From: an uncultured Bacilli bacterium
Lineage (GTDB): Bacteria > Bacillota_I > Bacilli_A > RF39 > UBA660
Length of the DNA stretch: 64,000 bases
Reading direction: 5' to 3'
Assembly (NCBI GenBank): GCA_934168275.1
Contig: CAKPNA010000001.1
Span: 249,034 to 313,033, forward strand
Within the stretch, counting starts at the first letter, position 1, and each line of letters begins with the position of its first letter. Below, piece after piece: positions 41,750 to 57,220 of the stretch. The notes under the pieces were generated by a model. It saw only the letters and a program-made list of their open reading frames with translations, had not been told where the DNA came from and did no database searches. A program made the position numbers and the translations under genes.

Positions 41750-43128
41750 AAATTTGAAAGTGCACAATTGTTGTGCAGTTAGGTTTGTAATAGTATATAA
41801 TATCTTCTAAGCAACTTATTTGTCATTTAAAGGAGGAAAGTTACAATGACAAAATATAAACATCTTTCTTATGAAGATAGAAAAAATATAGAAGATGGAT
41901 TGAATCAAAATAAATCCATAAATCAAATTGCTAAAGATATTAACAAATCTCATTCTACTATTTTAAGAGAAATAGATAGAAATAAGGTTTATTATAAGCC
42001 AACAGCTTGGAATAATTGTTCCGCTGTTTCTGCTCCATGTCAGAAATTAGATAAAACACCCTATGTATGTAATGGCTGTAAATCAAGAAGCGGATGCAGA
42101 AAAATAAGATATACTTATTATGCTAGAAAAGCTAATGATGCTTATAAAGAACTAATTAGTTCATGTAGACAAGGTATAAGTTTAACTGAAGAAGAAATAT
42201 ATAATATTAATAAAATAATCACACCTCTCGTTAAAAAAGGTCAAACAATAAATCATTTATATATTAATCATCCTGAAGTTTTAAACTTTTCTAAAGTTTC
42301 TTTTTATAATTATATTAATAATGGCATATTTGAATTTAGACCTCTTGATTTCCCTAGAATTGTAAAATATAAAAAAAGAAAAGCAACAAAACGTAGAACA
42401 CGACAAGAAAGAGAAATATTAATAGGTAGAAGGTATGAAGATTTTATTAATTATATAAGTAAAAACCCAAATTTAAACATTGTCGAAATGGATACAGTTG
42501 AAGGACTTCAAACTGATTCAAAATGTATTCTTACTCTTTTTTTGGAGAAAATGAAACTTAATGCTTATGTTTTTATTGGAAAGTCAAACAACAGATGAAG
42601 TTACTAGAACATTTGAATATCTTCAAAAAGTTTTACAAGAAGATGATTATAAAAAACTATTTCAGGTTATTCTTACTGATAATGGGCATGAATTTTATGA
42701 TGTACTAAACATTGAATGCAATCATAAAATTGGAGAATACATCACACATGTTTTTTATTGTAATCCATCAGCTTCTTGGCAAAAAGGTGGAATTGAAAAA
42801 AATCATGAATTTATTAAATATGTTTTACCAAAGAAAACAACATTTGAGCATTTAACTCAAAACGATTGTAATATTGTTGCTAATAATATAAATAGTCTAT
42901 GTAGAGAATCGTTAAATGATAATTGTCCTTTTAAGGCAATGTTATTTCTATGTGATGAAAAGATTTTAAATACCTTAAATATGTATTATATTGACCAGAT
43001 AAAGTTCAATTAAATAGAAAACTATTAAAATAAAAAAAGATATTTATTACCCAAAACAAATATCTCAATGACAAATAAATTGCCTACCAATAATAATATA
43101 CTAAGCAGAATTGTGCACTTTCTTTTAA
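41750..43128 (+). mobile_element. IS30-family insertion sequence with imperfect terminal inverted repeats (core GAAAGTGCACAATT)
   Basis: The left end is ttaaatttGAAAGTGCACAATTgttgtgcag (41748-41780). The right end is ctaagcagAATTGTGCACTTTCttttaaaa (43101-43130), its reverse complement. The two ends enclose the IS30 transposase reading frames. Confidence 0.75.
41846..43013 (+). pseudogene. IS30-family DDE transposase, split into two overlapping frames (frameshift at a T7 run near 42536-42542)
   Basis: ORF1 (250 aa) has the N-terminal HTH (YKHLSYEDRKNIEDGLNQNKSINQIAKDINKSHSTILREIDRN) and the first D (NIVEMDTVEG). ORF2 (150 aa) has ILTDNGHEF and SWQKGGIEKNHEFIKYVLPK (the DDE E-region). The two overlap at 42561-42598. 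Confidence 0.75.
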
Positions 43129-43731: not shown

Positions 43732-45729
43732 CTAATTAACCCCTTCTAATTTCTTACCAACATCATCTAACAATTGATATTCACTCCTATTATTCATAAA
43801 AGCAGGCATAAACTCATCAACATCTTTCTTTACCCTAAGTAATAATTCATAATCCCTCTTAACATTAGCCAGTATTAATCCAGTCTCTCCACTTTGTCTT
43901 AACCCAAACAAATCCCCTTCGCCTCTACTTTTAAAATCGTACTCACTAATCTTAAAACCATCACTACAATTCTCTAACATAGCAAGTCTTTCTTCTTTAT
44001 TATCCGCAATTAAAACACAATAACTCTGCAAACTATTTCTACCAACCCTACCTCTTAACTGATGTAACGTTGATAATCCAAATAAATTAGCATTAAATAT
44101 TACCATCATGGTAGCATTCTTAACATTAACACCAACTTCAATAACAGTAGTGGAAATAAGTATATCAACTTCCCCCTCTTCAAATTTACTCATAATACTA
44201 TTCTTTTCCTTAGGATCCATCTTACCATGAACAGAAGCTATCTTAAACATCTTACCAAAAGCCCTATTCATTTTATCCTCTAAATCAACAACACTACTAT
44301 TAACTGATGCCTCACCTTCCTCATTAATCATAGGAGCTATAACATATATCTGATGATGTTCATCTAATTCTTTCTTCATCATAATTAAAACATCCATTAT
44401 CTCATCAGTACCCTTTAAGTAAGTAATAACATCCTTTCTTCCAACCGGTTTAGTTTTTATACTAGATACATCCATATCACCATAAATAGTTAAAGCATAA
44501 GTTCTCGGTATTGGTGTTGCACTCATTGATAAAATATCCGGTAATTCCCCTTTATTCCTAAATGTATCCCTTTGATTAACTCCAAATCTATGTTGCTCAT
44601 CAGTTATTACTAAGCCTAAATTATTAAACATAACTTTATCTTGTATTAAACTTTGTGTCCCTATAATAAAGTCTATCTCCCTATTACTTAATTTATTATA
44701 TATAATCTTCTTATCTTTACTACTAGTAGAAGACGTCAATAAACTAACTTTCATAATACCATCAAATAAACGTGAAGCCTCCTGATAATGTTGATTAGCA
44801 AGTATTTCCGTAGGGACCATTAATGCAGACTGATACCCCGCTAAATAATTAGCGTAAACAGCAATAAAAGCCACAATAGTTTTACCACTACCAACATCAC
44901 CCTGTAATAGCCTATTCATTCTTCTATTACTCTTTAAATCATCAACTATCTCTTTTACCGAACTTAACTGATCACTAGTTAAACTAAATGGTAACTTACT
45001 AATAAATTCATTAACTTTATCGATATCAATAACTTTACTAACCTTATTACTACCACTATTATTTATTAACTTTAAATAATTAATCTTAAATAAATACATA
45101 AATAATTCTTCATACTTTAATCTTTGCTTAGATTTCTTTAACACTAAACCATTATAAGGATTATGTATTAACTTTAAAGCTTCCAACTTAGGCATAAAAT
45201 TATATCTAGCTACTAAATAATCAGGAATATAATCATTACAATGATAACTATCTAAAATAGTATTTATAATCTTAGCAATAAACTTTCTATTTAATCCATT
45301 AGTAGTATAGTAAACTGACTCAACAGTAGGAGTATCATTTAATTTCTCAAATCTAATCTCACTACATACAATATTATTTTTATATTTCTCATACTTACCT
45401 ATAACAGTTATCTCTCTACCTAACTCTAACTCTTTCTTTAAATAAGCTTTATTATATACACTAACATTAATTAAATAACTACCTGTATTAATTCTAAATA
45501 CTATCTTCCTTAATTTAGGATTAATATATACAGTACTAACATTACCATCTATACACCCATCTATTACTATTCTATCCCCATCATTTAAAGAAGATATATT
45601 ACTCTTTCCAATAATATCATATCTAAATGGATAATGATTAACTAAATCATCTGTAGTATATATATTTATTTTATTAAATAACTCTAACGTTTTAGGACCT
45701 ATTTCATTTACTTCACTCAATAAAGCCAT
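43732..45729 (-). CDS. recG: ATP-dependent DNA helicase RecG
   Basis: 665 aa with an N-terminal wedge/OB region and helicase motif I (GDVGSGKTIVAFIA), followed by DEQHRFG and QLRGRVGR motifs. Confidence 0.9.
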   Translation of the reverse strand: MALLSEVNEIGPKTLELFNKINIYTTDDLVNHYPFRYDIIGKSNISSLNDGDRIVIDGCIDGNVSTVYINPKLRKIVFRINTGSYLINVSVYNKAYLKKELELGREITVIGKYEKYKNNIVCSEIRFEKLNDTPTVESVYYTTNGLNRKFIAKIINTILDSYHCNDYIPDYLVARYNFMPKLEALKLIHNPYNGLVLKKSKQRLKYEELFMYLFKINYLKLINNSGSNKVSKVIDIDKVNEFISKLPFSLTSDQLSSVKEIVDDLKSNRRMNRLLQGDVGSGKTIVAFIAVYANYLAGYQSALMVPTEILANQHYQEASRLFDGIMKVSLLTSSTSSKDKKIIYNKLSNREIDFIIGTQSLIQDKVMFNNLGLVITDEQHRFGVNQRDTFRNKGELPDILSMSATPIPRTYALTIYGDMDVSSIKTKPVGRKDVITYLKGTDEIMDVLIMMKKELDEHHQIYVIAPMINEEGEASVNSSVVDLEDKMNRAFGKMFKIASVHGKMDPKEKNSIMSKFEEGEVDILISTTVIEVGVNVKNATMMVIFNANLFGLSTLHQLRGRVGRNSLQSYCVLIADNKEERLAMLENCSDGFKISEYDFKSRGEGDLFGLRQSGETGLILANVKRDYELLLRVKKDVDEFMPAFMNNRSEYQLLDDVGKKLEGVN

Positions 45730-45943: not shown

Positions 45944-46183
45944 TTATCTTCCGCTTCTTCTAGAATTATTTACACCATCAGAATATAACATATCATCTAA
46001 TGTTAATCCTCTATATTGCATTTCAATTATTAAACACTCAAGAATATTTCTTCTAATTTTATTTGCTTCACCATTTATAATATTATAAAAACAACATTGT
46101 AACTCTTCAAAAGAAAGTTCTTTTAAACTATCTGTTAAATTATAATTAACAGTTTCTTTTTCTAAACTGTTTAATGTTACCAT
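45944..46183 (-). CDS. Small hypothetical protein (79 aa from the RBS-supported ATG) driven by a consensus sigma-A promoter
   Basis: The RBS gaaaggagc precedes ATG(46183), giving MVTLNSLEKE... A -35 TTGACA (46238-46243) and -10 TATAAT (46215-46220) with a 17-bp spacer lie on the minus strand. The longer 99-aa ORF start is unlikely. Confidence 0.45.
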   Translation of the reverse strand: MVTLNSLEKETVNYNLTDSLKELSFEELQCCFYNIINGEANKIRRNILECLIIEMQYRGLTLDDMLYSDGVNNSRRSGR

Positions 46184-46210
46184 ACTTTTCGCTCCTTTCA
46201 AAAAAACTTT

Positions 46211-46243
46211 TGCAATTATACACCTACATATTTGGAATGTCAA
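46211..46243 (-). promoter_or_regulatory. Consensus sigma-70/sigma-A promoter (TTGACA-17-TATAAT)
   Basis: Minus-strand reading: TTGACAttccaaatatgtaggtgTATAATtgc. Both hexamers are perfect. Confidence 0.6.
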
Positions 46244-46405
46244 GAAAAATCGTATTTGCCTTCAATTCGCTATGATTAATTTATGATAATGGCTTAAGTG
46301 TTAACTTGCGAAAATGTCTCACTATGATATAATATGTCTCTAAATCATTCTTATTTATTGAGTATTTTTTTACTTTTCTATTTATTTCATTATAATAATC
46401 AACAT

Positions 46406-46470
46406 AGCTTCCTTCTATGGTGAATATGTTTCTATTTGTAATTTATTACTCTTAATTTTAAACACTACAT
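46406..46470. repeat. comEC 3'-end-like repeat, copy 1 (encodes ..VVFKIKSNKLQIETYSP* then an RBS)
   Basis: Reverse-complement translation gives TNVVFKIKSNKLQIETYSP-stop followed by aggaag, paralogous to the real comEC terminus (SVVFKVKNSKLKIKTYSP*). Confidence 0.7.
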
Positions 46471-46524
46471 TTGTAGAAAAAAACTATCAATAAATTATTG
46501 ATAATTTTTTGATTATATTTTTTA

Positions 46525-47034
46525 CTATATTGTAGGTAACTCATTGGTCCATTTTTCCAAATCCTTATGTGTTTGGTCTAATTCAGCATATATTTCCTCA
46601 TCCGTTTTTCTTATTGTATGATTTTCGTCTTTATAAAAATCAATTTTCTTTGATAAATAAGATTTATTTTCTATAAGTTCATATTTAAAATTACTAGGAT
46701 GCTTTTGAAAATTATAATCATAATGAAATAAAATATAAGGATATGTTGCTGTTTTTTCATCTTTATGATAAAAATATTCTTTATCCTTTCCTACAAAATG
46801 CAAACTTTTATCATTTTGAGCTTCGCTCAAATATTCTTCCAATTTATTGATATCTTCTTTATGTAGTGGCCAAAGAATTCCTACATCATTATGCCCTGCA
46901 CATGAAAAATCTGTTTTATATCCTTTTTTGTTTAATATTGCAATTACATTTCTTATTTCATAATCACAATAAATATATTCATTTAATTCATCTTTTATCT
47001 CAAAGGTATTTTTATTAATGAATGCTATAGACAT
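46525..47034 (-). CDS. Hypothetical protein (cargo between comEC-end repeats 2 and 1)
   Basis: 169 aa with no recognisable motif. Confidence 0.45.
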   Translation of the reverse strand: MSIAFINKNTFEIKDELNEYIYCDYEIRNVIAILNKKGYKTDFSCAGHNDVGILWPLHKEDINKLEEYLSEAQNDKSLHFVGKDKEYFYHKDEKTATYPYILFHYDYNFQKHPSNFKYELIENKSYLSKKIDFYKDENHTIRKTDEEIYAELDQTHKDLEKWTNELPTI

Positions 47035-47099
47035 TTTTTCACCTCAGTATTTATTATATCATACCTTTTTACCAATAAATTAATTTTATTCACTTTTTC

Positions 47100-47889
47100 T
47101 AATTCTTTTAAATTTTTAGCTAGAGTTAGTAGATTTTCTGGCATTGTACCAACTAGTTTGTAAATTGTATTCCTAATTTCTTTACAGACTTCATAACGAG
47201 TTTCATTGGCTTCACTTTCTAATTTAATATTTTAATTTTTTAATTTTTGTTCCGTTTGAGAAATTCTAAATAAATTTGCAATTAACTCATCACTACCTAT
47301 ATTATCTAAAATATCTTCTCTATATCTAAGTTTATTTCGTTTAGTAATATCGTTTGCAGTTCCTCCATTATATAATTCCTTATACCCTGAATTATGAAAT
47401 TTATCAAAATTTTTTTCTCACCATTTCTAGCAAAAATATTCAAAGAATAATTACCTTTCCCTGTTAAATTTCTTTGATAAAATCTTTTCTGTTTCTCAGT
47501 AAGTTCACTATATTTTTTTCACTTAATTCCTGCTTTCTAGTTTAAATAGCAAAAGATGTTTGTGCAAGCACTATAATTTCTTTTCTTGAGTCGCCATCTT
47601 GTGTCACTAAATAACATGCATATCTTGATAGCTTATAATATCTAGTTTCCCTTTTAGTATTAGAACCTATATCAACCATTTTACCAACATCAGCAAAATG
47701 GTTTTCAATATCTACATTTGAATTTTTACATGCTAATTTTGCTTTACTAATTACATTTTCAAATCTTCTACACTGTGCATACTCTAATATCTTTTGTAAT
47801 TCTCTAGTCAACCAATACTCATTATCATTTCTATCAAAATGTTTTATATCTTCGAATAATTTTGCTGTATATTCTTTTAGTTCATTCAT
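47100..47889 (-). pseudogene. DinD-like (DNA-damage-inducible protein D / Bro-N-like) gene with only the N-terminal ~115 codons intact
   Basis: The intact ORF 47542..47889 (…ENVISKAKLACKNSNVDIENHFADVGKMVDIGSNTKRETRYYKLSRYACYLVTQDGDSRKEIIVLAQTSFAI) matches the DinD N-terminal domain. DinD is normally ~270 aa. The 47100-47541 segment has no long ORF in any frame, consistent with frameshifts. Confidence 0.5.
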
Positions 47890-48030
47890 TTTTCTTCCTT
47901 CTATGGTGAATATGTCTCAATTCTTAATTTATTTTTTTTAATTTTAAACATAATACTACCATTTTGATCTGTTCTATATATTTTTATTAATAAGTTACAA
48001 AATTCATCACCATAATATTCTTTTGTTTCT
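47890..48030. repeat. comEC 3'-end-like repeat, copy 2 (encodes ..YGDEFCNLLIKIYRTDQNGSIMFKIKKNKLRIETYSP* then an RBS and the ATG of the next gene)
   Basis: Reverse-complement translation aligns with the comEC C-terminus (RYGHPNKEVLNNLSDSKIYRTDQDGSVVFKVKNSKLKIKTYSP*). It abuts the dinD-like start codon. Confidence 0.75.
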
Positions 48031-48058
48031 TCGTAATTCACAATATCGCATCCTATAC

Positions 48059-48940
48059 TCACACCAATTCATATTCTCTAGCAATTATTCTCTCATCAGA
48101 GCAATATTTAATTACATATTTATTATCTTGTTTGCAAATAATAATTCCCACTGTATCATTTTCTTCAATAGTTTTTATATTCTTATCTATATAATTCATA
48201 TAAGTCATAATTTGTCCAGTATGCCCTTTCTTAAGTTCTGTTATCTTTAATTCTACAACTACATAACACCTATATTTAATATTATAAAGTAATAAATCAA
48301 TATAGTTATATCTATTACCTAATTTAATTGGATATTCACTTTTTATAAAAGTAAACCCTATTCCTAATTCTTCTAAAAAGTTTTCAATATCTTCTAGGAT
48401 TAGTTTTTGTAATATTTTTTCTGATAATATATCATACTTATTGCTATTTTTAATCAAAATTGGATTCTTGATAAAATCAACTATATCGGATTCTTTTTGT
48501 TCTACTGATTTATTTTTTGTAAATTCAGGAAGCCTTTCATATTCATTAGATTTTATTTTTTCTCTTAACTGTCTTATTGATAAATTATTTAATTCAGCTA
48601 TTTTAACATAATATTGAAATTTATTATCATCAAACCAAAGAATTTCACAATAATGACTCCAACTTAATTTGGCAGACACTGTCTGCCATTTCTGAGATAC
48701 TTTATAAAACTGTCTCATATTTCTTAAATTTCTTTGACTATATCCTGAACCAAACTCTTCAGTTAATTTTATTGAATACTCTTTAATAATACTTTCTCCA
48801 TATTGATTACCCGCAGCTAGTAATAACTTACCAACATTATAGTAAGTATTTAAATCACTCTTATTAATTGAATAATTTTTAACTTTCCGATTTATCCCAT
48901 TATTTACTAATTCATTTTTTATCTCATTATAGTAATTCAT
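48059..48940 (-). CDS. YhcG-like DUF1016-family PD-(D/E)xK nuclease
   Basis: 293 aa. The N-terminal region has LSWSHYCEIL...LSIRQLREKI, as in DUF1016. The C-terminal PD-(D/E)xK core is YIDLLLYNIKYRCYVVVELKITELKKGHTGQIMTY. Confidence 0.65.
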   Translation of the reverse strand: MNYYNEIKNELVNNGINRKVKNYSINKSDLNTYYNVGKLLLAAGNQYGESIIKEYSIKLTEEFGSGYSQRNLRNMRQFYKVSQKWQTVSAKLSWSHYCEILWFDDNKFQYYVKIAELNNLSIRQLREKIKSNEYERLPEFTKNKSVEQKESDIVDFIKNPILIKNSNKYDILSEKILQKLILEDIENFLEELGIGFTFIKSEYPIKLGNRYNYIDLLLYNIKYRCYVVVELKITELKKGHTGQIMTYMNYIDKNIKTIEENDTVGIIICKQDNKYVIKYCSDERIIAREYELV

Positions 48941-49060
48941 ATCTACTCCTTTCTACGGACTATATGTTTTAATTTTTAACTTACTATTTTTAACTTTAAA
49001 CACAACACTACCATCTTGATCCGTTCTATAAATTTTTGAATCACTCAAATTGTTTAATAC
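48941..49060. repeat. comEC 3'-end repeat, copy 3 (the genuine comEC terminus, stop, RBS aaaggag, then the ATG of the YhcG-like gene)
   Basis: This is the prototype of the ~65-140 bp sequences duplicated at 47890 and 46406. Confidence 0.75.
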
Positions 49061-51031
49061 TTCTTTATTTGGATGACCATATCTATTGTTCTTGCCAACA
49101 CTAACTATTGAATATTTTGGATTTACTTCATTTATAAATTCTTTACTACTACTTGTTTTACTTCCATGATGACCTACTTTTAATACCTTTATATCACCTA
49201 TATTATATTTATTTAAAATATCTTGCTCTTTCTCTATTCCAGCATCTCCCATAAATAAAAACTTATAACCTTCATAATTAAAATAAACAACACTAGAGTT
49301 ATCATTCTCGTTATCATACTCTCTTGTATTTAAAAAATACATCTTATAGCCACTAATCCTTAATTCTTTAATACATGTATAATACTTAATTTTCTTTTTA
49401 TTTAATACTTTGATTAATTCCTTTTCTAAATCATTATAAGGTCCACAATTAAATACCACGTTTTTTACCTTAAAATTATTTACTAAATTAATTGCTTCTC
49501 CCATATGATCAAAGTCTCCATGTGAAACCACCAAATAGTCTATCTTTGTAATACCAACTGTCTTCAAATACGGTATTATCTTATTACCAACATTATTACT
49601 ACTCTCATAATTCATTGTATCCCCTGAAGTATCAATTAATACATTACCACCATTATTAGGAAAACTAACTAATATACTATCCCCTTGGCCAACATCAAAA
49701 ACAAGCACTCTTAAATCACTATCAAAATAACTAATATTTTTAAAAAGAATAATTAACAATATTACCCCAATATACATTTTAGACTTATACAAAGATATAA
49801 CTAAAATCACATAATATATAATCACTAGCACTATCCCTACTTTAGGAAAATTAATAACAAGCATTGAAATATTCGATACAAACAAAGAACATTTCTCCAT
49901 AATACTAATAAATAAATATAAAATAGCATCTATCTTAGGAACAAACAAACTCACTATTGATAAAGGGAATATAATACTACTAACTAATGGAATAAAAAAC
50001 AAATTCAAAACAACTGATAAAACATTAACTTGATTAAAATAATTAATACATATAGGTAAACTAAACATAAAACTAATAAACGATATATATAAATTCTTTA
50101 CCAATTTATTTTTTATTTTCTTTATATTTCTATTAGCCATAACTATTCCGGTACTTATAATGTATGAAAACAAAAACGAAACATTATATAGATAAAAAGG
50201 ATTAATCAACAACAATACTATAAGAACAATAAGCATTATATCTAAACTCTTAATTTTCAAATTAAATAATTTATTAATAGAAAAAAGAATAAACATTAAA
50301 ACACTTCGCACTGAACTAGCCGTAAATCCCACTAGCACCATAAAAAATATTAAAAACAAATTAACAATAAAATAATTAAAATAACGATTATAACTAATTT
50401 TATTCATTATACCTAACAAGAAAGTAGCAAACAAAGTAATATGCATTCCCGATATTGAAAACAAATGACTAATACCATTATATTGATAACTACTCCTAAC
50501 ATCTTTATCTATTTCATTAATAGCCAAAACAAATGTCTTAACATAAGAACCACTCTTCTTTATATTATTAATTCTACCTATTAACTTATTTTTTATATAA
50601 TAAATAATACTAGTATTATTACCTATCTTCTCAAACTTATCAATTGTCATTAAATAAAATATCCCACTAGTTCTTAAATATTTTTTATAATTAAATAAAT
50701 TAGGAATAGTATTGTTATTAGCTTCCTTTAAATTACCATAAATAATAATTCTATCACCCAATTTTATATCATTAAAATAGCTAATTTCTTCCACATCTTC
50801 ATAATAGTAATTACCAATAATCGTCTCTTTATTATTTACATATATTTCAACTCTATTATCTTTAATAGAAATCTTTTCTACTATTCCTTCAAATGAAGTT
50901 AAATCGCTATTTAAAATACTCTCTCTTTTAATAAAATTAATTCGATAAAGGCTAATCATTAATACTAATAAAGCCAATACTTTAAATAAATATTTATGTT
51001 GTAATATTACTTTTAATCTTCTCATAAACAT
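48953..51031 (-). CDS. comEC: DNA internalisation-related competence protein ComEC/Rec2
   Basis: 692 aa with an N-terminal polytopic competence domain and a C-terminal metallo-beta-lactamase domain (VLVFDVGQGDSILV...HGDFDHMGEA). Confidence 0.9.
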   Translation of the reverse strand: MFMRRLKVILQHKYLFKVLALLVLMISLYRINFIKRESILNSDLTSFEGIVEKISIKDNRVEIYVNNKETIIGNYYYEDVEEISYFNDIKLGDRIIIYGNLKEANNNTIPNLFNYKKYLRTSGIFYLMTIDKFEKIGNNTSIIYYIKNKLIGRINNIKKSGSYVKTFVLAINEIDKDVRSSYQYNGISHLFSISGMHITLFATFLLGIMNKISYNRYFNYFIVNLFLIFFMVLVGFTASSVRSVLMFILFSINKLFNLKIKSLDIMLIVLIVLLLINPFYLYNVSFLFSYIISTGIVMANRNIKKIKNKLVKNLYISFISFMFSLPICINYFNQVNVLSVVLNLFFIPLVSSIIFPLSIVSLFVPKIDAILYLFISIMEKCSLFVSNISMLVINFPKVGIVLVIIYYVILVISLYKSKMYIGVILLIILFKNISYFDSDLRVLVFDVGQGDSILVSFPNNGGNVLIDTSGDTMNYESSNNVGNKIIPYLKTVGITKIDYLVVSHGDFDHMGEAINLVNNFKVKNVVFNCGPYNDLEKELIKVLNKKKIKYYTCIKELRISGYKMYFLNTREYDNENDNSSVVYFNYEGYKFLFMGDAGIEKEQDILNKYNIGDIKVLKVGHHGSKTSSSKEFINEVNPKYSIVSVGKNNRYGHPNKEVLNNLSDSKIYRTDQDGSVVFKVKNSKLKIKTYSP

Positions 51032-51686
51032 TATTACCTATACCACTTACTTTAGTAATATCCTCTATTGTATTAAACTTTCCATTTTCTTCGCGATACT
51101 TAACAATAGCCTCTGCTTTAGATTGCCCTATTCCATCTAATTTAGATAATTCTTCAACACTAGCAGTATTAATATTAACTTTACCACTACCATTAGTAAT
51201 AGTATCCGTTATCTTATCATTAATACATCCATCATTCTCAATATTAGGACACTTACACTCCTTCTCCACAACCTTAATAACCGTATTAACTAAGTTAGAA
51301 TTCTTAACCTCTTCGGTAGTATAAATAATTATTACCATCTCATCACTTACTAATTTAGATAAATTAATTAAAGATGTATCAGCATCCTCTCTAAGTCCTC
51401 CGGCCATATTAACTACATCATTAACTCTTGTACCTACTTCTACTTTATATACACCCGGATTATTCACTGCACCTTTAATATCCACTAAATAATACTTATC
51501 ATCACTAACAACATTATCTTTTTTATCACTAACCAAAATATCATCATTATCTTCAATATCATTAATAACTACACTATTATCTATTAAACTATTCTTTAAA
51601 TAAATTCCTCCTATAATAATTAAAATACCCATAATACTAAATACAATATACTTATATTTCTTTAAAAACTTTATCATAACTATCAC
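50994..51686 (-). CDS. comEA: Competence protein ComEA (DNA receptor, HhH)
   Basis: 230 aa with an N-terminal TM and tandem C-terminal helix-hairpin-helix motifs (VNINTASVEELSKLDGIGQSKAEAIVKYREENGKFNTIEDITKVSGIG). Confidence 0.85.
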   Translation of the reverse strand: MIVMIKFLKKYKYIVFSIMGILIIIGGIYLKNSLIDNSVVINDIEDNDDILVSDKKDNVVSDDKYYLVDIKGAVNNPGVYKVEVGTRVNDVVNMAGGLREDADTSLINLSKLVSDEMVIIIYTTEEVKNSNLVNTVIKVVEKECKCPNIENDGCINDKITDTITNGSGKVNINTASVEELSKLDGIGQSKAEAIVKYREENGKFNTIEDITKVSGIGNNVYEKIKSNITT

Positions 51687-51793: not shown

Positions 51794-52438
51794 TTAACTT
51801 ATTCGATAATGCCCAACAATATCATCTCTATCTTCTAAAATATCTTCTTCATAATTTATTTGCCACTTATTAGCATGATGAATTACAAAACTTACTCCAT
51901 TCTTATTTCTATTATCTGATACTATTCCAATATGATGTTTAAAAACTACAATGTCTCCACCTTGCCACTCATCTATATTATAAATATCATTCGTAAGTTT
52001 AATCGCATTATTATCAAAATATACCTTCAAATTAACAACTCTTCTAAAATCAATATTTTTATCAACTACTTGAATATTATATCTTTCTCTATTATTTACT
52101 ATATCATCATTAACTAAAGTTTTTAAATCATATCCCGCATTAAGTAAAGCAAATCCAACTACATCACTACATACCCCATACTCATCATTAGGATATCCTG
52201 TAGCATAATATTTACTTTTATACTTAGGCTTTTTACTTACATACTCTTTAGCACCCTTTAATATATCACTTTGATCATCTATTCCATCATTATCTTTATC
52301 TGTCTTACTAATATAAGTACTAATACCAAAATATTCATTACTATATTTCTTATGAGATATATAATTTAATTTATATAAAATAAATAATCCTAATAATATA
52401 AAAACACTATCAATTATTAAATACTTAAATCTTCTCAT
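51794..52438 (-). CDS. DUF1287 domain protein (membrane-anchored)
   Basis: 214 aa with an N-terminal TM. GVCSDVVGFALLNAGYDL...NIDFRRVVNL...GDIVVFKHHIGIVSD matches the DUF1287 pattern. Confidence 0.6.
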   Translation of the reverse strand: MRRFKYLIIDSVFILLGLFILYKLNYISHKKYSNEYFGISTYISKTDKDNDGIDDQSDILKGAKEYVSKKPKYKSKYYATGYPNDEYGVCSDVVGFALLNAGYDLKTLVNDDIVNNRERYNIQVVDKNIDFRRVVNLKVYFDNNAIKLTNDIYNIDEWQGGDIVVFKHHIGIVSDNRNKNGVSFVIHHANKWQINYEEDILEDRDDIVGHYRIS

Positions 52439-52465
52439 ACCTATCCCTTATACATACCTCTTTTA

Positions 52466-53491
52466 CTATTTTAAAATATTATCTAAATCTCTAATAATAC
52501 CATCTCTAGATACACTATAATAATTAAATTTTTTACTACTAAAATCATTAAGTAAAGAATTAATATATTCACCAAACTCAATAATCATATCATCATTACT
52601 TAAAATATCATCAGCAACATCTTTCTTTAATTTAATTAGATATACCTTAACTAAAAAACTATTTATTTCCTTAATCTTTTGAATAAACATATTAGTTTCT
52701 AATAAACGTCTTGCCTTATTAAAATCTACATATCTATTAGTATAATCAAGACAAGATATAAAATTAATAATTTCTTCATAAGATGCATATTCTTGAAGTT
52801 CTTTAATTAGTCCATGTAAATTAGCACCTAAATACAACTTATACATCTTAGATTTACCAATAATTTTTTCTAATTTGCCTGCAATAAACACTTCATATTT
52901 GTAAGAACCACGTACATCTTCAATATCGCCAAAATAACGCTCTGTAAGCAATTGTGTATATCATTCATTCAAACCATCACCAAAAATATAAGTATAACTT
53001 GACTGACTAAATCCCGAATAATATATATTATCTGCTTCTACTGAACTAGCCATATGAAATAATTCATGATAAATAGAAATTAAATAATTATCTTCCTCAA
53101 ATATCATATCATTATGTTCAATATCATAATATCCATCAGTATAACGAAAAGAATATCCTTTACTAGAGCTAGTTTTTACCTCATTTATATTATTATAAAA
53201 AATAGTTAAATCAGCACCACTAAACTCTGATAAAATTACCTCGATAAATTCCATTATAGCTCCACAAAATTTCCTAGATAGCAATTTATCATAATCAATA
53301 CCATCATATTTCAAATCTTGTTTAGGCAAACTTTTAACTTGTACACGATGATTAATTTTATGCTTTTTTTGCAAACAATACTTACCAATTTTTCTATCCG
53401 TAGTATAGCATAATATAATAGGTACTAAATCATTATAATCAACACTATCCATATCACGTATCAAATCAAATAATTCTTCATTATACCTCAT
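52466..53491 (-). pseudogene. HExxH (zinc metalloprotease-like) protein gene interrupted by one in-frame TGA at 52961-52963
   Basis: Two ORFs (176 aa and 161 aa) lie in the same frame, separated only by TGA (…FGDGLNE-TGA-YTQLLTERYFGD…). The upstream part has HELFHMASS. Confidence 0.5.
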
Positions 53492-53820
53492 ACTATCACA
53501 TCTTTCTATATTATTTAAAGAAATCTCTCTTATTAAAACCTGATGTCATAAATCTAAAAGCTGCTCTTCCATTAGTTAACCAAGTAAACTTAACATTATT
53601 CTTAGTATTAACAACCATTTTATTTACCATAAACTTTGCAATTACCTCCAGATAATCACCTAAAACATTATTTTTCATCTAAAGTAATCTTCTCACCATT
53701 TGCTAAAATTTCAATAAAACAAGCAATTGTTATCTTTGAAATACCATGCAAAGATAGTTCCATCTAAATCTATATCAATTTTCATATAACGCCTCTATTC
53801 ATATTAATTGTAACATAAAA

Positions 53821-54312
53821 TCACTTATTATTTACTACATATTCATTAAACTTCAGCATAAACTCATCAGTTGTTGCCCATTCAAAATCATAACCTGATA
53901 TTTTATATAAAGCATAAGCACAAAGATATTCATATTCACCTCTATTAGGACTCTTATATATAATTAAGTATAATGGTTTCATCGCCGGTTTACCAATATC
54001 TATTACTTTTTTAAATCTCTCATAATTAAAAACTCTAGCCCAACCTTCGGTAATTAATATTTCCGGATTTTCTCTCTCTTCCTCATAAGCCTCAGCAACA
54101 AGTATTTGAAGTTCAGATGATACTTCAGTTAAAATATCCTTATCTACATTCTTTATCAGCAATTCCTCATTAACTCCATTAGCAGTAATTTCATCCCATG
54201 TAATATCTTTATCTTCTGCTTTATCATCATTATCAATTATTTTATTATTACTAAAAAATATATAGACTCCTACTAAAACTAATAAAACTATAAATATTAA
54301 TATTTTCTTCAC
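53821..54312 (-). CDS. Hypothetical N-terminally anchored secreted protein
   Basis: 163 aa with a signal-anchor (ILIFIVLLVLVGVYIFF) and an acidic extracytoplasmic domain. Confidence 0.45.
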   Translation of the reverse strand: MKKILIFIVLLVLVGVYIFFSNNKIIDNDDKAEDKDITWDEITANGVNEELLIKNVDKDILTEVSSELQILVAEAYEEERENPEILITEGWARVFNYERFKKVIDIGKPAMKPLYLIIYKSPNRGEYEYLCAYALYKISGYDFEWATTDEFMLKFNEYVVNNK

Positions 54313-54416
54313 AACTTACTCCATTCCTGAACAACACTTCATTAAATTAATTATATTGTATCATACTTTTAGCAGCTTCATCAAAAAAGAGACATATCAT
54401 AACAATATATCTCATA

Positions 54417-54932
54417 CTATTTTTTATTCTTTACCTTATCTTTATCTTTTTTATCAATTTTCTTCTTATTTGAAACACAACTACCTAACATATATCCAAC
54501 TACAAAGAACAAAAACATTCCAACAAAATTTGATGCCGGATCGCTAGGTGAACCTACAATAAAGAAAACAACACTAGTCAAACATAGTACAATAGAAACA
54601 GCAATTGTAATAATTAAGTTCTTATTTTCTAACAATTTCATTTCTTCAAGCTCTAATTCTTTTAATCTTCTTTGTTCAGCTAATTCTAACTCTTTTGTTT
54701 TTCTATTTTCTTCTTGAATCTTTTGAACCCAATTTTTCCTAGTATTATTAGAATTTTCTAGTTCAATCTTTTGACTATGCTTAATTTCCATTAATTCTTT
54801 TTTAGCATTATGTCTAGTAGCAAATTTTTCTTTCCATCCCTTTTCGCTGTTATCAATACCTTTTTCTACTAATTTTTCAACATTACCCTCAACATCAATT
54901 TTCTTCTTATCCATATCAAAAATTAATTTCAT
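54417..54932 (-). CDS. Hypothetical coiled-coil membrane protein
   Basis: 171 aa with a Lys/Glu-rich coiled coil (ELELAEQRRLKELELEEMKLLE), two C-terminal TM segments and a KKD-rich tail. Confidence 0.45.
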   Translation of the reverse strand: MKLIFDMDKKKIDVEGNVEKLVEKGIDNSEKGWKEKFATRHNAKKELMEIKHSQKIELENSNNTRKNWVQKIQEENRKTKELELAEQRRLKELELEEMKLLENKNLIITIAVSIVLCLTSVVFFIVGSPSDPASNFVGMFLFFVVGYMLGSCVSNKKKIDKKDKDKVKNKK

Positions 54933-54998
54933 ACATCATACCTCCATTATAAAACTTGTAATTTACGCGAATCAATCTAAATTATATCACTAACAAAA

Positions 54999-55736
54999 TT
55001 ATCTTTTTCTACATTCAAATACTGATTTGTCAAGTTCACATCCAGTTAAATTTTTTGCATCTGTTTGCATAACAGAAATAATTCCTTTAATAACTTTATA
55101 ATCTTCAAGTCTTGTATAAATGCCATTAAAAGGATCCAATACCGTTTTATCACCATCATTATTAATTATAAGCCAATTATGTTCACCATTACTCTCAATG
55201 CCATCTACAATAATAAAACTAGATTCTTTTTCTTTAATTATATTTAAAGCTGTTAAAAACATACAGTAGTCAAAACATACTCCCCTCAAATATGGTTCAT
55301 CATCTCTTGTAAATTCAAATAATACCCTTAGCATTTTTTCAAATAATGTTTCATTTTCTCTAAAGTGATAAAATTGAGCCTTCTTATATGGATAAATATA
55401 ATTTCTTAAACCTCTTTTTATATTATCATGAACAATTAAACTTTTGTCATATATATCATCATATTCACTGTATCCTGTTTTTCCTTTGTTAAATAATTTA
55501 TATGATAATGTTTTAATATCTATTCTACCTGATAAATAATCATTAACTATACTAATAACTTCCTTACTATATTTATTTGATTCAATTATTTTATATAAAA
55601 ATGTAGATAGAAAAAATTGCATCGTATTTTCATCTTTTCTAATCATATCTAAGATTTCACCAACATCAGCAGAAATTGACTTACCACTTTTTAAATTTAA
55701 AATAATTTTATTAAATAATTCATCATTCATTTCCAT
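54999..55736 (-). CDS. Hypothetical cytoplasmic protein
   Basis: 245 aa with no recognisable motif. Confidence 0.45.
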   Translation of the reverse strand: MEMNDELFNKIILNLKSGKSISADVGEILDMIRKDENTMQFFLSTFLYKIIESNKYSKEVISIVNDYLSGRIDIKTLSYKLFNKGKTGYSEYDDIYDKSLIVHDNIKRGLRNYIYPYKKAQFYHFRENETLFEKMLRVLFEFTRDDEPYLRGVCFDYCMFLTALNIIKEKESSFIIVDGIESNGEHNWLIINNDGDKTVLDPFNGIYTRLEDYKVIKGIISVMQTDAKNLTGCELDKSVFECRKR

Positions 55737-56172
55737 ATTCTATCTCCTTTATTACTATTATTATATCATTTATTTATATCCATTTGTTTTTAATTAGCAA
55801 TATTTATAAAATTACTTTTTTAGAATTAACTCTAAACTAAGCAGAAACAGTAAAAAATATTTCTTTTTTATATTTTAAAACAATAATTTCAAACGGTTAC
55901 AAAATGTAACCATTTCATTTTCATCTTTTTTAATCTATTTTTTAAACCATTCAATAATTTCTTACTTGTTTGTTTTCAAATACTTTTCCTACTACTATCA
56001 ACTCACCTTTTATCTAGTATTTAGTACGCACACTCTCCACATAGCATATTCTTAATTATGAATAGTTTCTTTTTATATGTTTGAGTATAACTAACTACCT
56101 CATAATATACAAACAAAATAGGTACAACATATATTATGAATATATACATTATTATTAAATATTTTAGAAAGG

Positions 56173-57048
56173 TTAGTTGTATATTTTATTTAGTATATCA
56201 TTTAAAATTGTATTACTTTCCATTTTATTAATGGCAAAACATTTTTTTCCTAAGTCTTTAAAACTACTACCACAATGATATATAAATCTCTTATCTATAA
56301 TAATAAATCTATCATGAAACTTGTTGTTAAAAACTAGTTCAACATTGTTATACTGAGCTCTATATTTTTTTATTAACATTTCATTCATATTTGCAGAATA
56401 AATTATTATATTAACATCTATTTCTTTTAAAATATCTAATAACTCTTTACCAGCATAATTATCAATAATAATTATTTCCTTTTTTGCAGTTTTTAAAATA
56501 TCTAACAATAGCGAATAAGCATCATAAATTTGGCCATCAAAAAATATTGCATTTGCTTTTTCTTTTTCATGTAATTTATCAAAAGAAGTTTTTAGTAGCC
56601 TTATTTCTTCATCATGCTTATATACTAGATTATTTATAAAACTTTGATTTACCAATGTATTAGAAATATATTTTCTCATGGAAACAAACGCATCAATAAT
56701 TTGAACATTAACTTTGACTGCAATATCACTCTTAAGAAGACCAGATAACATCATTATTCCTTGCTCAGTTAAAACATATGGTAAATATCTTATACCACCA
56801 TGTACTATCTCATTTCTTAAACTTGAGGTCACAAATTGTGATCTCAAGTTGATTACTTCTTCCACAGTTAATTGAAAACAAAATGTTTCTGGGAACCTCA
56901 TAATATTTCTTTTAATAGTTTGATTTATAATTCTTGTTTCAGTTTTATATAACTTTGCAACATCTGATGACAAAATAACTTGTTTACCTCTCACTTCAAA
57001 TATCATTTCTTCAATTTTAATATTCTCTTTCAACATTAGTTCATTCAT
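56173..57048 (-). CDS. ORF6N (KilA-N-related) domain protein
   Basis: 291 aa. The N-terminus (IFEVRGKQVILSSDVAKLYKTETRIINQTIKRNIMRFPETFCFQLTVEEVINLRSQFVTS...GGIRYLPYVLTEQGIMMLSGLLKS) matches the ORF6N domain. The C-terminal ~150 aa are unknown. Confidence 0.7.
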   Translation of the reverse strand: MNELMLKENIKIEEMIFEVRGKQVILSSDVAKLYKTETRIINQTIKRNIMRFPETFCFQLTVEEVINLRSQFVTSSLRNEIVHGGIRYLPYVLTEQGIMMLSGLLKSDIAVKVNVQIIDAFVSMRKYISNTLVNQSFINNLVYKHDEEIRLLKTSFDKLHEKEKANAIFFDGQIYDAYSLLLDILKTAKKEIIIIDNYAGKELLDILKEIDVNIIIYSANMNEMLIKKYRAQYNNVELVFNNKFHDRFIIIDKRFIYHCGSSFKDLGKKCFAINKMESNTILNDILNKIYN

Positions 57049-57220
57049 AATCTAAAACCCCCTTTTTGTAATTTCAATTATATAACCAATACTACATAAT
57101 ATGATATAAGTAAACATATTCTCCTCAGACAACCTCCATAAAATTTTACCATTTTTTTTACAAAAATAAATGTTTTTTTTGATAGTCACTGAACAGTTGA
57201 TTTTCGTTGAAATATAAGGC

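Follow-up and report, generated by a model that had tools for sequence, protein, structure and literature searches.

Stacked comEC 3' ends in uncultured gut Bacilli point to repeated module insertion at a phage integration site

Why should a bacterial chromosome carry, behind a full-length comEC gene, the tail ends of two further comEC genes, each followed by cargo of its own? This arrangement occurs in a 64,000-nucleotide stretch from an uncultured Bacilli bacterium (GenBank assembly GCA_934168275.1, contig CAKPNA010000001.1, positions 249,034 to 313,033 of the forward strand), which was analysed as a whole and is called the window here. A preliminary description of the window proposed that cargo-bearing modules had been inserted serially, each bringing a replacement 3' end, and that the copies are stacked former comEC ends of which the older ones decay. 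That outline broadly stands, but the insertion point, the size of the replaced piece, and the type of recombinase differ. We consider it probable that repeated module insertion at a phage integration site left the three copies, one as the present 3' end of comEC and two as former ones; the same pattern is found in dozens of sampled species of uncultured gut Bacilli.

The comEC gene lies at 48953-51031 on the minus strand, as do all window features below unless stated otherwise. It encodes a full-length protein of 692 residues with the Pfam domains Competence, Lactamase_B, and DUF4131, which is also present on 21 metagenome contigs. Mechanical repeat detection in the window returned a family (D1) of 92 nt at 71 to 80% identity, all three copies align together in MAFFT, and tblastn with ComEC residues 504 to 692 against the 64-kb window places them essentially where they had been reported. 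Copy 3 is the current 3' module of comEC itself, codons 504 to 692 plus the stop codon (48953-49522). Copy 2 comprises the final 27 codons and stop codon of a former comEC 3' end (47901-47984; protein match at 47984-47904, 27 codons, 70% identity, E=1e-8), and copy 1 the final 17 codons and stop codon of the oldest such end (46415-46468; protein match at 46468-46418, 17 codons, 71% identity, E=0.005). The alignment of both to the ComEC C terminus holds and is matched by synteny with contig L098 of a close relative. Copy 2 had been given about 40 codons; its comEC-like end is real, but only the last 27 codons of the 53-residue open reading frame (ORF) at 47901-48062 belong to it. Stacked direct repeats of the comEC 3' end, copies 1 to 3, thus delimit successive elements in the window.

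The newest module carries as cargo a YhcG/DUF1016 nuclease of the PD-(D/E)xK type, 293 residues long (48059-48940). Its gene starts 13 nt beyond the comEC stop, and the protein passes the Pfam gathering scores of DUF1016_N (93.8 bits, cut-off 32.8) and YhcG_C (116.6 bits, cut-off 32.5). The gene after copy 2 is DinD-like, with a Bro-N domain, as had been noted, but it is a pseudogene (47085-47889): tblastn with a full-length homologue gives matches spread over three frames, equivalent to two frameshifts. It is 54 to 64% identical to a full-length relative (L062, 1055-1879) that scores 332.8 bits for the NCBIfam equivalog NF008573 (cut-off 242). The middle module also holds an accessory gene of 169 codons (ORF169, 46525-47034), which is 98 to 99% identical in contigs L098 and L099 of close relatives and found no match in Pfam, PHROG, or PADLOC; an AT-rich hairpin with a T-run after it (about 46476-46503) was spotted by eye, and the terminator scan made no call there. 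Copy 1 is followed not by a new short ORF, as first described, but by the decayed 5' end of the oldest YhcG gene, about 25 codons joined to the conserved flank (46329-46405), in which 46391-46329 is 81% identical to YhcG residues 14 to 34. Both cargo families are listed in PADLOC only as candidates (YhcG/DUF1016, PDC-S02; DinD-like, PDC-S13), with matches in PHROG to phrog_22762 and phrog_8036, respectively, so the phage-defence role first given to the cargo is retained for candidate defence families, not proven ones. Because the ribosome-binding site of the cargo lies directly behind comEC, co-transcription with the DNA-uptake operon is suggested.

To place the window among its relatives, we collected 80 loci from species-level genomes with the C-terminal half of ComEC; at least 541 of the 599 candidate stretches in the genome collection encode a relative. 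Their records bear labels such as uncultured Bacilli, Tenericutes, Mollicutes, and "Clostridium sp. CAG", and we read them as RF39-like gut Bacilli of about 25% G+C. Searching these loci with tblastn gave 60 extra comEC fragments, all 60 downstream of comEC and in the same orientation; in these genomes, the repeats are absent from unrelated loci. Of the 52 loci with 3 kb or more of downstream sequence, 36 hold such fragments. The fragments start mainly at residues 496 to 506 (mode 504), and most of them reach the true C terminus. The gene right after the intact 3' segment is YhcG-like at 47 of 79 loci, DinD-like at 26, and of another kind at 6; it usually begins 13 to 17 nt past the stop, and one variable accessory gene often stands between it and the next fragment. 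The displaced fragments tend to include more divergent, older allele types, and the resident ends form mostly one tight cluster. No integrase of any type was found in or beside the arrays at the 80 loci, nor in the 64-kb window, in keeping with the earlier suggestion of a recombinase encoded elsewhere.

Codon 504 is also where the resident genes change character. Among 72 resident proteins from related species, mean pairwise identity is 39% over residues 251 to 503 versus 81% over residues 504 to 692, and the two are negatively correlated. The step coincides exactly with codon 504, which encodes the first His of the metallo-beta-lactamase motif: per-codon identity is 0.44 to 0.85 at codons 497 to 503 and 0.8 to 1.0 onward, reaching positions beyond the catalytic motifs. 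At four-fold degenerate sites, the upstream part is saturated (0.40 observed versus 0.39 expected), whereas the downstream part is not (0.52 versus 0.41). The window and its closest relative, L002, show the reverse asymmetry, with 91% identity in the N-terminal part and 74% in the C-terminal part; in nucleotides, identity is about 95% up to codon ~500, then 83 to 88%, then 63 to 70% through the rest of comEC and YhcG. Modules are common to different species at 88 to 96% nucleotide identity, and the shared segments begin at -64 to +12 nt from codon 504. Such a module comprises comEC codons 504 to 692 and a YhcG/DUF1016 or DinD-like gene, and often an accessory gene, a terminator, and a P half-site of the kind described below. 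The last 189 codons and the next gene therefore behave as a module exchanged between strains and species; codons 1 to 503 of the window gene are lineage-specific, and the rest is its current exchangeable module. The exchange point is at codons 504 to 506, 570 nt upstream of the stop, and not at the extreme 3' end of comEC as previously proposed. The replaced unit is 189 codons long, and the 17- and 27-codon copies of the window are deletion remnants of it.

What lies at codon 504? Searching with ComEC residues 1 to 503 returned three proteins (P0024, P0046, and P0074) truncated just after H504-G505. These led to conspecific lysogens in which comEC is split at CATGG (codons 504 to 505), one of them 94% identical to the window in ComEC residues 1 to 505. 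Directly after the break, on the opposite strand, lies a gene for a large serine recombinase of 465 to 468 residues, followed by a gene for a CI-like repressor (L083, L084, and L085). The recombinase matches the phrog_95 integrase, and the combination of Resolvase, Recombinase, and Zn-ribbon domains adjoining the att site is found at the lysogens and in phages L086 to L092. As a separate observation, the 470-residue ComEC relative P0052 loses similarity beyond residue ~446 ("...LRVLVFD"), immediately ahead of the DVGQGD motif; this hints that another conserved metallo-beta-lactamase motif also serves as an insertion or break site.

The displaced fragments carry a complementary signature. Directly 5' of them stands a hairpin with a T-run and then a 27-nt motif, which occurs in two forms of equal length, A (ATTCGACTTACTTTTTGACAATCACCA) and B (ATTCGTATGCATAAACGTATGTCACCA). 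Motif A or B abuts CATGG at 35 sites in 31 genomes, always on the comEC strand, and 19 of the fragments behind these sites are intact 189-codon ORFs. The sequence past CATGG at the lysogen breaks is the inverted repeat of motif B. Further, phage contigs in IMG/VR whose integrases are 65 to 74% identical to those of the lysogens have a complete attP immediately past the integrase stop codon. That of phage L090 reads ATTCGACTTAC...CACCA/CATGG/AGG...GTAAGTCGAAT (slashes mark the junctions), with a P arm identical to motif A. These attP sites span about 50 bp and have imperfect inverted-repeat arms, perfect in their outer 11 nt, with no long direct repeat; the arms are unlike comEC. CATGGAG is the core common to attP, attL, and attR. 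Junctions of the attL type (B.P') were found at L082 to L085, L088, and L089, and those of the attR type (P.B') at the 35 sites in 31 genomes and in the conspecific strain L099; no single contig covers both ends of one prophage. L090 also encodes Erf, a repressor, a holin, an endolysin, and tail proteins, and the integrases are at most 36% identical to any from cultured phages.

Because of the lysogen breaks, the inverted repeat of motif B, and the identity of the phage P arm with motif A, comEC codons 504 to 506 (CATGGAGAY; CATGGAGAC in the window, 49514-49522) appear to be the attB core of a temperate phage family with a large serine integrase. This putative core encodes H-G-D of the HxHxDH metallo-beta-lactamase motif, and the crossover would fall in this region. 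On the same evidence, the 27-nt motif is the phage P arm, and each junction of the motif with CATGG is an attR-type scar. Other readings of the 27-nt motif were tried and set aside: one arm of motif B is XerC-like, but there is no XerD arm to complete a dif-like site, and tRNA-like, antisense-ORF, and promoter readings were not convincing. It was also observed that the A-type P arm (L005, 10518-10560; L090 attP) contains TTGACA, and that comEC codons 507 to 508 supply TATGAT after a 16-nt spacer; at attR, TTGACA-16-TATGAT is a promoter-like site aimed into the displaced fragment and its cargo gene.

With the P arm in hand, the order of events can be followed in close relatives (ComEC residues 1 to 503, 93 to 96% identical; RecG, ~97%), which have five comEC-to-recG configurations. 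The cargo differs among them, as had been predicted. In L101 and L102, comEC is followed by a 17-codon YhcG remnant and then the flank, and L096 has a YhcG gene of another type and a HAD-like gene before the flank. L098 has comEC with its own 3' end, a DinD-like gene, ORF169, copy 1, and a YhcG remnant, corresponding to window 47985-46328 at 96.4% identity over 1660 nt. The resident comEC end of L098 is copy 2, and therefore copy 2 of the window was once a working comEC end. L099 has the L098 arrangement plus a proximal module composed of comEC', a YhcG gene (296 residues), a gene for 258 residues, a terminator, and a type A P arm, which abuts the CATGG of an intact displaced fragment of 190 residues. 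This fragment matches the resident end of L098 at 92 to 100% in all ten 60-nt windows. Since the match holds throughout, the whole old end was displaced, with the junction at or very near the att core and no mid-segment hybrid. The new L099 module is 88 to 93% identical over 2.0 to 2.35 kb to modules in three other species. Outside this lineage, the agreement of displaced fragments with resident alleles starts at nucleotide 0 to -3.

Copy 1 is present in both L098 and L099, truncated identically, and both keep longer remnants of the oldest YhcG gene (residues 14 to 142 and 221 to 293). Compared with these strains, the window is the L098 backbone with a different proximal module, its YhcG being 57% identical to that of L099; a deletion has taken the accessory region, the attR junction, and codons 504 to 665 of the displaced end. 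The conserved right flank (45944-46243, promoter motif and small ORF) is 84 to 96% identical in L002, L096, L098, and L099. The strong promoter previously assigned to the sequence after copy 1 is a real motif, with 12 of 12 consensus positions of a sigma-70-like promoter in the promoter scan (TTGACA-17-TATAAT, 46215-46243), but it belongs to this flank, together with the small ORF and recG (43732-45729) beyond it. In every strain, the variable region ends on its right at a fixed edge, marked by this perfect promoter. The small flank ORF after it is annotated as 79 residues in other assemblies. Two genes of the relatives are not in the window: an extra gene of about 300 codons between the small flank ORF and recG (L002, 10300-11240; L096, 10994-11890) and a HAD_SAK_2 gene (L096, L098, and L099).

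A metagenome scan with an attP-type junction gave three loci, one of which, the 77-kb bacterial contig L095, bears on how modules are handled. Its comEC is followed by YhcG, a gene for 147 residues, a terminator, and a full attP-type junction (P_A.P'_A); then by an esterase gene, a terminator, a P_C.P'_A junction, a gene for a helix-turn-helix/membrane protein, and a terminator; and finally by P_C.B', a decayed comEC', and a YhcG remnant. The single-gene cassettes are thus integrase-less, each with its own terminator, split by P.P' junctions, and closed by P.B'. This order indicates that integrase machinery does act on integrase-less units. The P.P' junctions are preceded by cargo and terminator, and homologous recombination alone is therefore insufficient to explain them. 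The same region of L095 (5590-7450) combines an A-type P' arm with a P arm of a third type, C (TTTTCGACACTTAAAAATTGG).

Put together, the events probably ran as follows. A new module placed at the att core would give the 5' 503 codons a new 3' end, and the old 3' end with its cargo would be pushed downstream behind an attR-type junction (P arm, then CATGG...) and decay there. Two such rounds are visible in the window, with copy 1 and its YhcG remnant as the oldest layer; copy 2, the DinD pseudogene, and ORF169 as the middle layer; and the resident end and YhcG as the newest. Later deletions removed the two older attR junctions as well as the greater part of each former 3' end. Direct support comes from the homology of the copies and their order, the series of strains, the codon 504 boundary, the P-arm identity, the lysogen splits, and the sharing of modules between species; we infer that modules are inserted by a phage integrase acting in trans.

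One route would use canonical reactions only. A prophage sits in a host that already holds an array; it would excise with the distal attR, taking along the module between the two attR sites; the module-carrying phage would integrate into a new host; and excision with the proximal attR would then leave the imported 3' end in place and the host's old end behind the module's P arm. Alternatively, a module circle (P.B') could recombine with a resident attL with the help of an excision factor, or the integrase could be relaxed in its choice of sites. Homologous recombination among the 570-nt repeats would then reshuffle alleles. A wider proposal, which we put forward only tentatively, is that RF39-like gut Bacilli maintain a gene-capture platform on the phage serine-integrase att site in comEC. 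Integrase-less cassettes that start, on the B' side, with a replacement comEC 3' end and finish in a P half-site would be inserted, excised, or shuttled by phage integrase, re-tailing a split comEC and delivering candidate defence genes co-transcribed with the DNA-uptake operon. The suggested route is the alternative use of several attR sites, and extra attR sites might also misdirect prophage excision.

Several points weigh against insertion by phage integrase. With both attR junctions gone, the window retains neither a P nor a P' arm, and it is tied to the att site through its relatives. Two protein-pattern and two DNA-pattern scans of IMG/VR, which holds only about seven related phage contigs, returned no comEC' module or internal attR. 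In the sampled phages, there is no comEC', YhcG, DinD, or array accessory gene, and tblastn of array ORFs against the phage loci gave no common accessory genes. A circular module would carry an attR-type P.B' site, which canonical large serine integrases do not recombine with attB, and no model accounts for how the first module with a terminal P arm arose. The data are mostly metagenome assemblies, in which repeats can break or mis-join contigs. Conspecific strains hold a set of mosaic comEC 3' alleles, the resident end of L099 is itself a mosaic relative to several alleles, and segments shared between species end variably, at the comEC stop, at the end of YhcG, or through the accessory gene into the next fragment. 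Allele mosaicism, variation in where shared segments end on the right, and the gradual change of identity from the window to L002 show that homologous recombination clearly contributes, and it could in principle do most of the work.

The main rival takes this last point to its end and makes homologous recombination the sole mechanism. Here, attR scars would have arisen once or a few times, through rare events such as aberrant prophage excision followed by Campbell-type recombination of a specialised-transducing genome, and modules would then have spread solely by RecA-dependent recombination after transformation or transduction, with the 570-nt comEC' repeats as portable homology and without the integrase ever acting on modules. 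DNA from an aberrant excision would begin at the attR crossover, which would explain the left boundary at codon 504, and the gradual rather than single-step fall in identity between the window and L002, the mosaic 3' alleles within one species, the variable right ends, and the lack of a cassette-carrying phage in the IMG/VR scans all suit this account. It fits less well with L099, whose displaced fragment is the entire old end, with its junction within the first ~60 nt and not at a random position, or with the fragments elsewhere that match resident alleles from nucleotide 0 to -3. By itself, it cannot make the P.P' junctions between the single-gene cassettes of L095. Also against it, 35 arrays preserve the P arm precisely, beginning at its outer edge, yet differ from the phages in the sequence further upstream. 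We regard recombination as the sole mechanism as possible but rather doubtful.

Insertion of modules at the phage site also has to be set against the mechanism first proposed for the window, in which an element with its own, typically tyrosine, integrase enters the 3' end of comEC and carries a replacement end in attP, as islands at tRNA genes do. Stacked direct copies of the gene end with different cargo, variable among strains, are what it predicts. The boundary, however, is at codon 504 and not at the 3' end, and the elements integrated there use large serine recombinases and truncate comEC rather than restoring it. Their attP sites hold no comEC-like sequence beyond the 7-nt core, and neither these sites nor IMG/VR yielded an attP with a target-gene 3' end, which is why the classical scheme fails for these phages. 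In the 80 loci, no integrase lies within or next to the arrays; the one cluster of Xer-like tyrosine recombinases is further downstream, among housekeeping genes. This mechanism is largely refuted and, in our view, unlikely. The window also lacks tRNA genes.

Because fragments begin at the HxHxDH motif beside a nuclease gene, a homing-like drive was our first favourite, in which the YhcG nuclease would cut naive comEC at the sequence encoding HGDxDH and repair would copy in the nuclease gene with the 570 nt. The nuclease gene 13 to 17 nt past the stop at 47 of 79 loci, the sharp boundary at a highly conserved motif, and the homogenised tract up to the nuclease gene speak for it. It was demoted when lysogens were reached from the truncated ComEC proteins and the 27-nt motif was recognised as a phage P arm. 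The phage att site fully accounts for the boundary. Moreover, the 26 of 79 loci with a DinD-like gene have cargo in which no nuclease domain was detected, homing predicts replacement and not displaced copies behind a phage P arm, and all resident comEC genes retain the putative target sequence. Such a drive now seems very improbable.

We give an equally small chance to silent-cassette variation of the pilE/pilS kind, with the downstream fragments as gene-conversion donors that diversify the C-terminal nuclease domain of ComEC. About half of the motif-adjacent fragments are intact 189-codon ORFs and resident alleles are mosaic, but the segment is the most conserved part of ComEC (81%) and not hypervariable, many fragments are truncated or frameshifted (both of those in the window among them), and each has its own cargo and att scar, as a history of insertions predicts. 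A diversity-generating retroelement or local duplication was rejected: no reverse transcriptase is present, differences among the copies affect all types of base, and every copy has matching alleles in other genomes.

How far does module insertion at a phage site in comEC resemble known systems? The preliminary description called comEC unusual as an attB for cassette-like accretion, yet serine-recombinase elements are already known in streptococcal comEC (celB), where Phi1207.3, Phi10394.4, and Tn1207.1 sit at a GA dinucleotide (PMC4260502), and an A118-like prophage is inserted in Listeria comK (PMC7397523). In all of these, a temperate element with a serine recombinase splits a competence gene at a short core. 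Unlike them, the site here is within the HxHxDH motif, no integrase of a cultured phage is more than 36% identical to those found here, and integrase-less modules re-tail comEC, which the searched literature does not report for the streptococcal and Listeria elements.

Composite islands of the staphylococcal cassette chromosome (SCC) mec type are built at rlmH (orfX) by the large serine recombinases CcrAB and CcrC; the SCC attB lies in the last rlmH codons, and only about 15 to 18 nt are repeated. The comEC arrays share with them the tandem arrangement at a single attB beside a conserved gene, with the newest element nearest the gene and variable cargo, as well as recombinase-less pseudo-elements bounded by att-derived repeats. 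Indeed, L095 and the L098/L099/window series consist of recombinase-less, att-bounded elements with the newest proximal. In contrast to SCCmec, each module here carries 570 nt (189 codons) of the target gene, and single phage-type large serine recombinases take the place of Ccr: against the CcrA, CcrB, and CcrC NCBIfam models, they score 60 to 105 bits, and the cut-offs are 700 to 900.

In Streptococcus thermophilus, cis-mobilizable elements (CIMEs) and integrative and conjugative elements (ICEs) accrete at the 3' end of fda through a tyrosine recombinase, and in CIME and ssrA-island systems, all junctions share one short repeat, with an ICE or island as the autonomous partner. The shuttle logic is alike, with att-flanked recombinase-less elements joined to an autonomous one and co-excised through alternative att pairs. 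Neither system, however, replaces a large coding segment of its target gene, and the autonomous partner here is a phage. Tandem accretion of recombinase-less elements is documented for CIMEs paired with ICEs and for ssrA islands in Dehalococcoides (PMC5704250, PMC3146451).

The comEC arrays also recall two systems of variable gene ends and cassettes. Stacked same-orientation 3' fragments that start at a conserved motif, each with a partner gene and swappable by recombination, are a feature shared with rhs/cdiA. In the orphan C-terminal modules of rhs/cdiA, the variable toxin is the C-terminal piece, whereas here the 3' piece is conserved, the downstream gene varies, and the boundary is a phage att site. 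The single-gene cassettes of L095, promoter-less or self-promoted and ending in a recombination half-site at one platform, are integron-like, but the half-sites are those of a serine-integrase attP; there is no IntI, attI, or attC, and none of the 80 loci has an IntI-type gene beside comEC. The searched literature holds no description of an att site in the middle of a catalytic domain combined with 189-codon replacement-end modules, homogenisation of that segment in the species sampled, and single-gene cassettes bounded by serine att sites.

In effect, the last 189 codons of a core competence gene are mobile, with their edge set by a phage attachment site, and the comEC modules can be seen as a trace of conflict between temperate phages and natural transformation. 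They also form a previously unnoticed hotspot in which two candidate defence families lie right behind comEC and are probably co-expressed with DNA uptake. Integrase-less cassettes bounded by serine att half-sites suggest a possible way in which phages could mobilise host genes without illegitimate recombination. The several new sets of large serine integrase, attP, and attB, with P-arm types A, B, and C and one conserved 7-nt core, may be of interest as genome-engineering tools.

The surroundings of the locus add some minor observations. Independent contigs of the window species (L001, L100, L101, and L102) stop at the comEC end or inside YhcG, which is consistent with assembly breaks from strain-variable repeated modules. 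In the window, comEA (50994-51686) stands next to comEC in the gene order, and the region upstream of comEA (52400-57100) is strain-variable as well, as seen with L001, L082, L084, and L096 to L101. This stretch is bounded by an ORF6N-domain gene (56173-57048) and by a DUF1287 gene adjoining comEA, and its variable genes include adh_short, nitroreductase, acetyltransferase, and RhuM-like ones; near it, L082 has a different serine recombinase of 598 residues and a PemK toxin gene. Just past recG, on the plus strand, sits an IS30-like transposase (41846-43013) in two overlapping ORFs (250 residues with HTH_38, and 150 residues), probably frameshifted, beside about 700 nt without long ORFs.

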